DNA of 25,058 nt from an uncultured Lachnospiraceae bacterium (lineage in GTDB: Bacteria > Bacillota > Clostridia > Lachnospirales > Lachnospiraceae), in NCBI GenBank assembly GCA_964390095.1, contig CAYMGZ010000004.1:1-25058 (forward strand). The letters run 5' to 3'. This document shows, one piece after another, positions 22,718 through 24,349 of this stretch. Each line of letters begins with the position of its first letter. Position 1 is the stretch's first letter. The position numbers were made by a program, and so were the translations under genes. The notes below the pieces were generated by a model. It made no database searches. It saw only the letters and a list, made by a program, of their open reading frames with translations, and was not told the origin of the DNA.

Positions 22718-24349
22718 CTACTGCAAAAAGGCATCCATAATCCTCAAATACAGATCATTTCCCATATCCTCCGCCATTGCTGTATCCACTTCGTTTTCCG
22801 CGTCCTCTTCCTCTGCCGTATCCATTTTGTTTTCCGTGTCCTCTTCCTCTGCTGTATCCATTTTGTTTTCCGTGTCCTCTTCCTCGGTATACGTCAATTC
22901 TGTATCATCAGATTCCGAATCTGTATCATATTCCGTAGTTGCTTTCGCTTCCTTGCTTCTCTGTACTGTCACATGTGTTTTAACTTGCAAACGGATTCCT
23001 TCCGCCGCCCTGACAATACTTTCCGAATCCATATATACCCCGGAAGCTATGGAATCCCAAAATGGTCCCCTGCGTATGCTGCCCGTATCCCCTGCGGAAA
23101 AGCAGGCATACGCACAAGCGAAGCAACAGCGCCTTATGCCGCCAAGATATTCCGGGCGCAGCCACAATTTCCCTTCGTCCACAGTCAGCGCACCTGCCCG
23201 AACCATTGCATTCTGCCGCTCTTGTGGTTCATGCCTCAGAAAATTCAGGATTCTTTGCTCCGCATGGGCGTTACTGACACTGACATCCCCGACGATCCAA
23301 ACGGCGATCTGGGCGAAAGCATACCCTGAATGCGCAAGATTGCCAGAAATCTGATATATATGCTGCATATGCCTTCTCTGCCGCCTCGTACTCCCTGCCC
23401 CGTAATCTATCTCAACCTTTCCAAGCTGCCGTCCAAGCTTTGAAATCTCCGTGCTGAAATTTGTGGAAACAAGAATCCGGCGGCTGCTCTTGTCGTAATA
23501 GCATTGGATCTCACCGTTTATTTTATATATCACAGACAAAAAAGTAGAAAGCCAGCGCAAGTAACGGTGGATATCCTCACCCGCATCATACTCCCTCGGT
23601 TCTCTCGCCCCATCCCTGTCCCTGTACATCTCATACAATCGATTTCTTACCCTGCGGTCTCCCAGGTCGTTTGTTGTTCCTGGAGAGTGGAGGGTATGGT
23701 TGCGGCATCCTCCGTATGAATACATTTTTTTATCTGCCAGCCAGAGCAGATAAGCATACGACGCGGTATCAACACAAGAATCCCGCAACGGCCCCTCCCC
23801 CTCCCGCGCATCGGCCAAAAGCATAGCGGTTTCCTCCGCGGTCGGGGAAGGCGAAGGGGTTTCCCCCTCCTCATCCCCTTCTTCGCTCCATTCGCCCGTT
23901 TCCTGCCGGTATCTCCACTTTGTCCGCTGAACCGGGGCATCTTGTCGCACAGACATCCCCGTGCCATAACCAACCTCCGCCAGGGCGGGGGCATCGGGCA
24001 TTCTTTCTGCCGCGGCAGCCAAAAAATCCGCCTCGCGCTCCAGCAGGGCATTGTCATTGACTGCTTCCCCGTTCCGAAAATAATCCGGTTTTACCCTCCC
24101 CTGCTTCTGCTGCACCACATGCCCCAATTCGTGCCCCAGATATTTTTCCTGCCCGGATGCAATATAGACCTGGTTTCCCTGTGTATATGCGTATGCCTTC
24201 CTCTGCGCAGGCGCACCGGAGTGGTAATGGACGCGCACATCCCCAAAAGACAGCCCTGACAAATCCTCAAACTGCTGTTTCATCCGGTCCGGTATCCCGG
24301 TCGGATTTGTCCGTTTCTTCATCTTTGGACGATTTTCGTGCGCATACAT
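22718..24349 (-). CDS. DUF4157 (eCIS-core) protein with a C-terminal putative Zn-dependent deaminase toxin domain and acidic tail
   Basis: N-terminal TGIPDRMKQQFEDLSGLSFGDVRVHY...AYAYTQGNQVYIASGQEKYLGHELGHVVQQKQGRV...LEREAD, then PVQR. C-terminal RILVSTN...HAEQRIL...YLGGIRRCCFAC. RBS AAAGGGGG. Confidence 0.85.
   Translation of the reverse strand: MYAHENRPKMKKRTNPTGIPDRMKQQFEDLSGLSFGDVRVHYHSGAPAQRKAYAYTQGNQVYIASGQEKYLGHELGHVVQQKQGRVKPDYFRNGEAVNDNALLEREADFLAAAAERMPDAPALAEVGYGTGMSVRQDAPVQRTKWRYRQETGEWSEEGDEEGETPSPSPTAEETAMLLADAREGEGPLRDSCVDTASYAYLLWLADKKMYSYGGCRNHTLHSPGTTNDLGDRRVRNRLYEMYRDRDGAREPREYDAGEDIHRYLRWLSTFLSVIYKINGEIQCYYDKSSRRILVSTNFSTEISKLGRQLGKVEIDYGAGSTRRQRRHMQHIYQISGNLAHSGYAFAQIAVWIVGDVSVSNAHAEQRILNFLRHEPQERQNAMVRAGALTVDEGKLWLRPEYLGGIRRCCFACAYACFSAGDTGSIRRGPFWDSIASGVYMDSESIVRAAEGIRLQVKTHVTVQRSKEAKATTEYDTDSESDDTELTYTEEEDTENKMDTAEEEDTENKMDTAEEEDAENEVDTAMAEDMGNDLYLRIMDAFLQ
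22779..22886. repeat. In-frame 36-bp tandem repeat (3 copies) encoding the acidic tail of the effector
   Basis: Unit GC(T/C)GTATCCATTTTGTTTTCCGTGTCCTCTTCCTCT at 22779, 22815 and 22851; encodes EEEDTENKMDTA. Confidence 0.93.

Follow-up and report, generated by a model that had tools for sequence, protein, structure and literature searches.

What does the contractile injection system (CIS) of an uncultured gut Lachnospiraceae bacterium deliver? We examined a stretch of 25,058 nucleotides (assembly GCA_964390095.1, contig CAYMGZ010000004.1, positions 1 to 25,058; hereafter the window), in which a complete CIS structural gene cluster lies next to a gene for a 543-residue protein, P0001. An initial annotation, made from the letters alone, had proposed that the C-terminal part of this protein is a divergent nucleic-acid deaminase carried as CIS cargo. 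Our analysis makes it likely that P0001 is a modular CIS effector built around a zinc-dependent deaminase core of the cytidine deaminase (CDA) superfamily, nearest to the OTT_1508-like clade and in a branch that Pfam misses. Judged by its conserved residues and predicted fold, the C-terminal half very probably represents a rare, unnamed branch of zinc-dependent nucleic-acid deaminases.

Results

P0001 carries the zinc-binding and catalytic motifs of a deaminase, and these motifs are conserved throughout a diverged family. The protein is the product of a minus-strand open reading frame at 22718-24349, as translated from the window, with its ATG at 24349 and a TAG stop at 22720-22718. HAE (residues 362-364; 23258-23266, minus strand) would supply a zinc ligand, His362, and a catalytic glutamate, Glu364. 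The segment G404-I-R-R407-C-C409-F-A-C412 (23114-23140, minus strand) places a GxxR motif ahead of a CxxC pair of predicted zinc ligands. The initial annotation had located these motifs exactly, with HAE at 23266-23258 and CCFAC (residues 408-412, inside YLGGIRRCCFAC) at 23128-23114. Upstream of HAE lie EIQCYY (280-285) and RILVSTN (291-297). A HMMER search with residues 185-475 against 1.84 billion cluster representatives returned 82 proteins at E <= 1e-3, 27 of them at E <= 1e-10, and nearly all 82 show HAE followed by [P/A/C]CxxC.

The predicted active-site residues are among the invariant ones. In an alignment of 77 homologous domains (A2; 23-66% identity to P0001), R265, H362, A363, E364, G404, C409, C412 and G428 are invariant, and E280, Q282, Y284, N297, R326, H327, I367, L402, R407 and W431 are conserved in at least 90%. 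R407 is present in 76 of 77 domains, and position 406 is R or K in 53. Since position 408 is Pro in 54 of the 77 (P0005, for instance, has GGIKRPCLAC), the CC of P0001 is a substitution of the canonical PCxxC. The offset from His to the first Cys has a median of 29, the usual spacing in TadA-type enzymes, and rises to 47 in the P0001 subgroup because of an insert. The family signature reads HAE[RQ]RI, LGGxxR[P]CxxCA, GPxW and TxVT...DTDSDS. This degree of conservation excludes a chance origin of HxE and CxxC within 543 residues, and the invariance of all three predicted zinc ligands and the glutamate over 77 diverged sequences argues for an active enzyme. One metagenomic homologue, P0006 (749 residues), contains two tandem copies of the domain (82-351 and 418-708), both with HAE and CxxC.

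The predicted structure places these motifs where a deaminase would have them. Residues 225-480, modelled with AlphaFold2 from alignment A2, reached a predicted local distance difference test (pLDDT) score of 90.9 and a predicted template modelling score (pTM) of 0.89. In this model His362 directly precedes helix 363-372, in line with the helix start predicted for HAE in the initial annotation, while Cys409 lies just before helix 410-416 and Cys412 in its first turn. The CDA superfamily is marked by [HCD]xE where helix 2 starts and (P)CxxC where helix 3 does, about 25-35 residues apart; this pattern is found here, with helix positions taken from the model and the family's median spacing of 29. 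Upstream, a long helix (256-274) leads into a hairpin (281-286/291-296) that corresponds to the strands foreseen for EIQCYY...RILVSTN and ends in N297. TadA genes of the host genus have ...IARAYNxRN... following strand 2, and N297 may equal the substrate-contacting Asn of TadA and APOBEC enzymes. Two inserts frame the HAE helix: a pair of helices (299-341) before it, and a helix with a hairpin (376-397) between it and strand 402-404. Further elements of the deaminase-like domain follow: GPFW (428-431), helix 442-453 and strands 460-471. As modelled, the order of elements is that of the deaminase fold with inserts.

Exhaustive structure comparison enriches for deaminases. We compared the model with 48,161 representative PDB chains using VIA, and about 24 of the top 50 chains were CDA-fold deaminases, far above their share of the PDB. 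Their alignments cover roughly 90-135 residues, spanning model positions 30-255, with weak scores: blasticidin S deaminase is best (Z 4.5), SsdA has 4.0 and DddA 2.4-2.5, and the remaining deaminases in the top 50 include ADAT2/3, CDAs, dCMP deaminases, guanine and cytosine deaminases, TadA, RibD and DddB. An ESM-Atlas fold search matched a Basidiomycota cluster, 82% of whose members carry PF14441, with a template modelling (TM) score of 0.54 over 200 aligned residues, and an actinomycete cluster named 'eCIS core domain-containing protein' with TM 0.59-0.60. Clusters of the AlphaFold database (AFDB) yielded unnamed family members and DUF4157/eCIS core proteins, with weaker matches to B3ESX5 (E 5e-5) and a 'Deaminase family protein' (E 0.057). 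The structural neighbours also include the C-terminal domain of EspK (8ako_B, Z 4.3), Rv3899c (5imu) and DUF5631/DUF5632 clusters; these domains, which are associated with ESX-1 in mycobacteria, might be degenerate versions of a deaminase-like fold.

Sequence profiles point to the same families below their thresholds. P0001 matches PF14441 (OTT_1508_deam) over residues 362-416 and profile positions 2-39 of 64, with a score of 15.4-18.9 bits that varies with the search and the part queried and stays below the cut-off of 27; three close homologues show the same weak match. Over the 77 domains, the sole Pfam families to recur below threshold are PF14441 (6 members) and PF00383, dCMP_cyt_deam_1 (5 members, all weak, best E 0.0013). 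By language-model features, PF14441 clusters account for 36 of the 100 nearest neighbours. Sequence and profile searches of the PDB found no deaminase; their only match, to RecF, was judged spurious. No PF14441 gene scored above the cut-off in 401 genomes sampled from the host phylum or in 401 sampled from Pseudomonadota, the phylum of Paracidovorax konjaci, which encodes a family member. Because family members are publicly named either 'hypothetical protein' or 'DUF4157/eCIS core domain-containing protein', databases leave the C-terminal domain unannotated.

The family of P0001 appears to be a divergent branch with ties to the OTT_1508-like clade. Iyer, Zhang, Rogozin and Aravind (2011, PMC3239186) marked this clade by a GxxK before the CxxC and by an extended loop, linking strand 4 to helix 4, that carries a polar residue, usually His, and an axxP motif. 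They described delivery by type VII secretion systems (T7SS), Photorhabdus virulence cassettes (PVC) and type VI secretion systems (T6SS), fusions to PVC metallopeptidases, helix-turn-helix (HTH) partners, and PVC-linked deaminase toxins without immunity proteins. The P0001 family shares the HxE...CxxC centre, a G-x-x-basic motif just before the CxxC and a helical insert, as well as the clade's contexts (T7SS, PVC metallopeptidase, HTH and no immunity gene). It differs in the basic residue, which is Arg (76/77) rather than Lys, and in the loop, where an invariant G-P-x-W stands in place of a recognisable polar/His residue and axxP. Position 426 is His in 24 and Arg in 28 of 77 domains and is followed by G428-P-x-W431 with no clear aromatic-x-x-P, and PF14441 positions 40-64 stay unaligned. 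The family differs further in its extra inserts, its C-terminal TxVT...DTDSDS motif and its scores below the Pfam cut-off. Since the GxxR, the insert and the contexts match, while no axxP loop is clearly recognisable and the scores stay below the Pfam threshold, we file the family as a divergent related branch, not as a member of PF14441. The initial annotation had likewise noted a resemblance to OTT_1508-like toxins.

The deaminase-like domain is one module of a protein with a recognisable injection-system architecture. A full-length model of P0001 reached pLDDT 85.2. The protein begins with a short basic segment (residues 1-18; 24296-24349, minus strand) that is predicted to be disordered (pLDDT <50 over residues 1-13) and is a candidate loading signal. 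An eCIS_core/DUF4157 domain follows, from residue 19 to about 116 (24002-24295, minus strand; pLDDT 88-94); Pfam matches PF13699 eCIS_core at residues 19-84 with E 1.2e-11 and 45 bits against a cut-off of 22, and the domain contains a metallopeptidase-type HExxH motif, HELGH (residues 73-77; 24133-24119). A disordered linker (residues ~117-140; 23930-24001, minus strand; pLDDT 32-36) separates it from a confidently folded C-terminal globular module of about 340 residues (141-480). This module comprises a structured N-terminal extension (residues 141-234; 23648-23929, minus strand; pLDDT 83-98), kept only among the closer homologues P0002-P0009, and the deaminase-like domain itself (residues ~235-475; 22925-23647, minus strand), as delimited by family conservation, the model and structure comparison. 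The interval of 22900-23560 given in the initial annotation encloses the motifs but covers only part of this unit. P0002-P0004 are 60-67% identical to P0001 and have an identical architecture.

The domain ends in an acidic motif that opens the acidic tail. After the deaminase-like core, the whole family has T-x-V-T ... T-x-[DN]-[HY]-D-T-D-S-[DE]-S-[DE] (alignment A3; P0001 residues 471-480, 22910-22939), and many homologues terminate precisely at ...DTDSDSDA. The acidic tail of P0001 (residues 476-517; 22799-22924, minus strand; pLDDT 52-60) opens with this motif as DTDSES, and because the motif is present throughout the family, the start of the tail is part of the domain and not lineage-specific. 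Its possible roles include autoinhibition, a phospho-acceptor-like site or metal binding. The tail includes three 12-residue EEEDTENKMDTA units, encoded by a tandem repeat of three 36-bp copies (22778-22885, 93% matches). In several rat-gut runs the Logan contigs break within or next to this repeat, so that its copy number in other samples was not readable. The protein closes with a C-terminal helix (residues ~518-543; 22721-22798, minus strand) that ends in DLYLRIMDAFLQ, is modelled confidently only over its last ~14 residues (530-543, pLDDT ~90), and is kept in the closer subfamily. Its amphipathic pattern, [FL]Y.RI[LM]..[AL], is common to P0001-4, P0006-10 and P0012-15, including members without DUF4157.

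The effector gene is located beside the CIS genes, in a separate transcription unit. It starts 21 bp after a CapD-like gene and is followed by an intrinsic terminator, a hairpin and U-run at 22660-22698 (minus strand) with a folding energy of -22.4 kcal/mol (z -5.9; no shuffle out of 200 was as stable). A distance of 204 bp separates the effector from the first CIS gene. The adjacent structural cluster (5991-22513, minus strand) was checked by Pfam for Pvc16_N, a DUF4280 tip protein, the sheath and an AAA+ ATPase; beyond the terminator, the order is first CIS gene, Pvc16_N, DUF4280 and sheath, with the AAA+ ATPase further on. The order CapD, effector, CIS is retained in a related metagenomic contig. 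No immunity-sized open reading frame was seen after the effector gene among those of the window, and PADLOC matched no defence system. Recent transfer was also considered, from the low GC content of the gene core (0.49-0.54, against 0.55-0.60 in its neighbours), a signal too weak to use. Within the CIS unit itself, the first gene (20894-22513, minus strand) encodes a protein of 539 residues that matches nothing in Pfam, is rich in proline over residues ~375-410 and is 66% identical in a sister species. The sheath (17905-19839) carries a low-complexity repeat insert of KKDGGGETPDSGDV-like units at residues ~129-160; sister-species matches split in two around this insert, which marks it as variable.

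The effector is an accessory gene of patchy distribution. Sister species G401 has CapD, at 85% identity to the window's own, and the first CIS gene, at 66%, side by side with only a terminator and promoter region in between (G401:C4:17000-27000, positions 3169-3332, compared with window positions 22514-24370). The species thus show an insertion/deletion polymorphism of the effector gene, placed at the CapD stop codon, which makes it a presence/absence accessory gene. It is single-copy in the host genome; among the genomes searched, the domain occurs in one of 11 other species of the host genus, four of which have the sheath, and in none of 150 other genera of the host family. A search for related loci with a five-sequence alignment gave matches in three named genomes: a Lachnospiraceae metagenome-assembled genome (MAG), an Acetatifactor MAG in which the gene stands alone, and P. 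konjaci, in a 1040-residue protein. The sequence is present in rat-gut metagenomes of several studies, and one metatranscriptome contains a 223-nt contig over 22811-23033, a hint of expression only, as DNA carry-over is possible.

The domain is also found with other delivery contexts. Among 74 family representatives, 11 carry eCIS_core and three carry HTH_23. P0067 of Mycobacterium simiae (WP_163771483.1), a WXG100-like protein of 5498 residues, has the domain at its C-terminus (5225-5479), and P0061, another copy, is encoded just downstream of WXG100 genes, which suggests versions delivered by ESX/T7SS. Beside a stand-alone homologue, P0042, an open reading frame for 142 residues without a Pfam match (L045, 1836-2264) ends 17 bp before the deaminase-like gene and could encode a partner or immunity protein for CIS-independent members.

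Discussion

We propose that P0001 would be loaded into a CIS tube and act on nucleic acid in a target cell. Its loading into the tube of the adjacent CIS would probably proceed via the N-terminal region and an Afp15-like AAA+ ATPase and would be followed by injection. There, His362, Cys409 and Cys412 are predicted to hold a zinc-bound water while Glu364 shuttles a proton, so as to deaminate bases in the target's nucleic acid, either adenosine to inosine (A-to-I) in RNA or C to U in RNA or DNA, with a toxic or mutagenic outcome. The steps from zinc binding and catalysis to loading and injection are inferred, as are target and substrate. Cargo status is suggested by the eCIS_core domain, the adjacency to the CIS and the conserved synteny, as the initial annotation had supposed. 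Its reading of a divergent deaminase likewise gains support from the invariant motifs, the sub-threshold Pfam matches, the VIA enrichment, the TM of 0.54 and the language-model neighbours.

Known systems provide partial precedents for this layout. Xu and colleagues are said to have described Cgo1 and Cgo2 as cargo of AlgoCIS in 2022. In the PROCIS preprint (bioRxiv 10.64898/2026.05.27.728243), these proteins consist of a disordered N-terminus, DUF4157 and a variable C-terminal effector and are loaded in the inner-tube lumen, and loading needs the disordered N-terminal segment, not DUF4157. P0001 has the same order of parts, but its N-terminal segment is only ~18 residues long and the C-terminal domains are unrelated; by analogy, this segment may act as its loading signal. 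EAT11 of Amycolatopsis nigrescens (Geller 2021, PMC8213781) is associated with an eCIS, starts with DUF4157, is predicted to end in a deaminase, and kills E. coli and yeast when expressed. It is like P0001 in this DUF4157-deaminase layout and unlike it in its host, a soil actinomycete rather than a rat-gut Lachnospiraceae. The T6SS toxins DddA and SsdA share the CDA fold and zinc ligands that are predicted in P0001, and both are among the VIA matches, but they come from other clades, are paired with cognate immunity proteins, are delivered by T6SS and show no detectable sequence similarity.

Several observations weigh against the proposal of an injected deaminase. The AlphaFold and Foldseek check that accompanied the initial annotation had a split outcome: the model was confident with the motifs at helix starts, but Foldseek found no significant match for either model in the PDB or the Swiss-Prot part of AFDB, with no PDB match at E <= 0.001 and only unrelated proteins as the best (E 0.06 and above). 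The VIA scores, at Z <= 4.5, fall in a range that VIA itself calls common. None of the 77 family domains reaches any Pfam deaminase cut-off. Alignments by hhalign to the TadA, dCMP-deaminase and CDD alignments of the host genus were local and not significant (P 0.003-0.03), although in the correct motif register, PCxxC to PCxxC and, for dCMP deaminase, HAE to HAE. As to delivery, the effector gene sits on the cluster's 5' side, after the CapD-like gene, and a strong terminator precedes the structural genes; DUF4157 is dispensable for loading in AlgoCIS; and sister species G401 has the same CIS with no effector gene. We do not take the Foldseek null to mean a non-deaminase, because VIA and ESM-Atlas consistently pointed to deaminases.

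A first alternative retains the deaminase and moves its action inside the producer. P0001 would then be the killing effector of a cytoplasmic CIS in regulated cell death, or an editing or regulatory enzyme like the fungal OTT_1508-like deaminase (OLD) proteins. Cytoplasmic CISs that mediate regulated cell death have reportedly been found in Streptomyces. The transcription unit shared with CapD and closed before the CIS genes, the lack of a visible immunity gene, and members without CIS context (an Acetatifactor gene after thrS-infC-rplT, and P0042 beside def/fmt) are consistent with such a role, as is the site-specific A-to-I editing of mRNA by fungal OTT_1508-like deaminases (PMC12754623). 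However, eCIS effectors are strongly marked, in statistical terms, by fusion to eCIS_core (PMC8213781), and immunity genes are typically absent for PVC-linked deaminase toxins. The giant WXG100-like T7SS-type protein that ends in the domain is a polymorphic-toxin context, and patchy presence among species is typical of accessory toxins. We regard action inside the producer as unlikely but as a real rival.

A second alternative grants the deaminase-like scaffold and disputes its chemistry. The substrate might be free nucleotides or some small molecule, or the domain might be a non-catalytic, zinc-ribbon-like structural module, and any toxicity would then stem from something other than nucleic-acid editing. 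The Foldseek null and the weak structural matches, led by blasticidin S, dCMP, guanine and cytosine deaminases, leave room for this, and the large inserts at 299-341 and 376-397 could reshape the pocket. Yet the predicted catalytic Glu and three zinc ligands are invariant in 77 sequences, the nearest families by sub-threshold hidden Markov models, language-model features and fold are OTT_1508-type nucleic-acid deaminases, and the secreted-toxin contexts fit macromolecular targets, so this reading is very unlikely. That the HAE and CxxC are coincidental in a protein of unrelated fold and function, as the missing significant Foldseek, PDB-sequence and Pfam matches would allow, is very unlikely given invariant residues at canonical spacing and secondary-structure positions, the roughly half share of deaminases in the top structural matches out of 48,161 chains, and TM 0.54 to a PF14441 cluster.

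For the injected nucleic-acid deaminase that we favour, the substrate cannot be read from the sequence, just as the initial annotation had cautioned. Cytosine was predicted as the substrate of the OTT_1508-like group (Iyer 2011, PMC3239186), whereas the fungal OLD proteins, which in the literature searched are the sole OTT_1508-like enzymes of characterised function, edit A-to-I in mRNA hairpin loops (PMC12754623). The latter share the HxE-CxxC centre with P0001, and a fungal PF14441 cluster is its best named structural neighbour; they are, however, eukaryotic mRNA editors rather than secreted toxins, and the homology is remote. We consider RNA A-to-I and C-to-U on DNA or RNA roughly evenly likely, with free nucleotides a minority option. 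A bolder version of the proposal is decidedly unlikely: P0001 as an A-to-I RNA-acting deaminase toxin, like the fungal OLD enzymes and unlike a cytosine mutator, whose invariant acidic DTDSDS tail, extended by the repeats and helix, acts as a nucleic-acid mimic that silences the enzyme in the producer and replaces an immunity protein. If true, such a self-silenced, injectable RNA-editing toxin would be a new base-editor scaffold.

Most new base-editing enzymes come from deaminase toxins such as DddA, SsdA and the Sdd proteins. Among these sources the OTT_1508-like group is the least explored, and it is extended here by a well-modelled domain of ~250 residues with a clear catalytic signature. 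The initial annotation overstated the novelty of the find: fusions of DUF4157 (PVC-metallopeptidase) to deaminases were described in 2011 (PMC3239186), and the toxicity of EAT11 followed in 2021 (PMC8213781). New here are a sequence family that is rare, lacks annotation and has a distinct signature, and its gut-Lachnospiraceae host. Its value is incremental until the substrate is determined, because the concept of a DUF4157-deaminase effector is established. To our knowledge, no CIS effector has been characterised from mammalian-gut Lachnospiraceae. P0001 provides a specific predicted payload for the CIS of one such bacterium.

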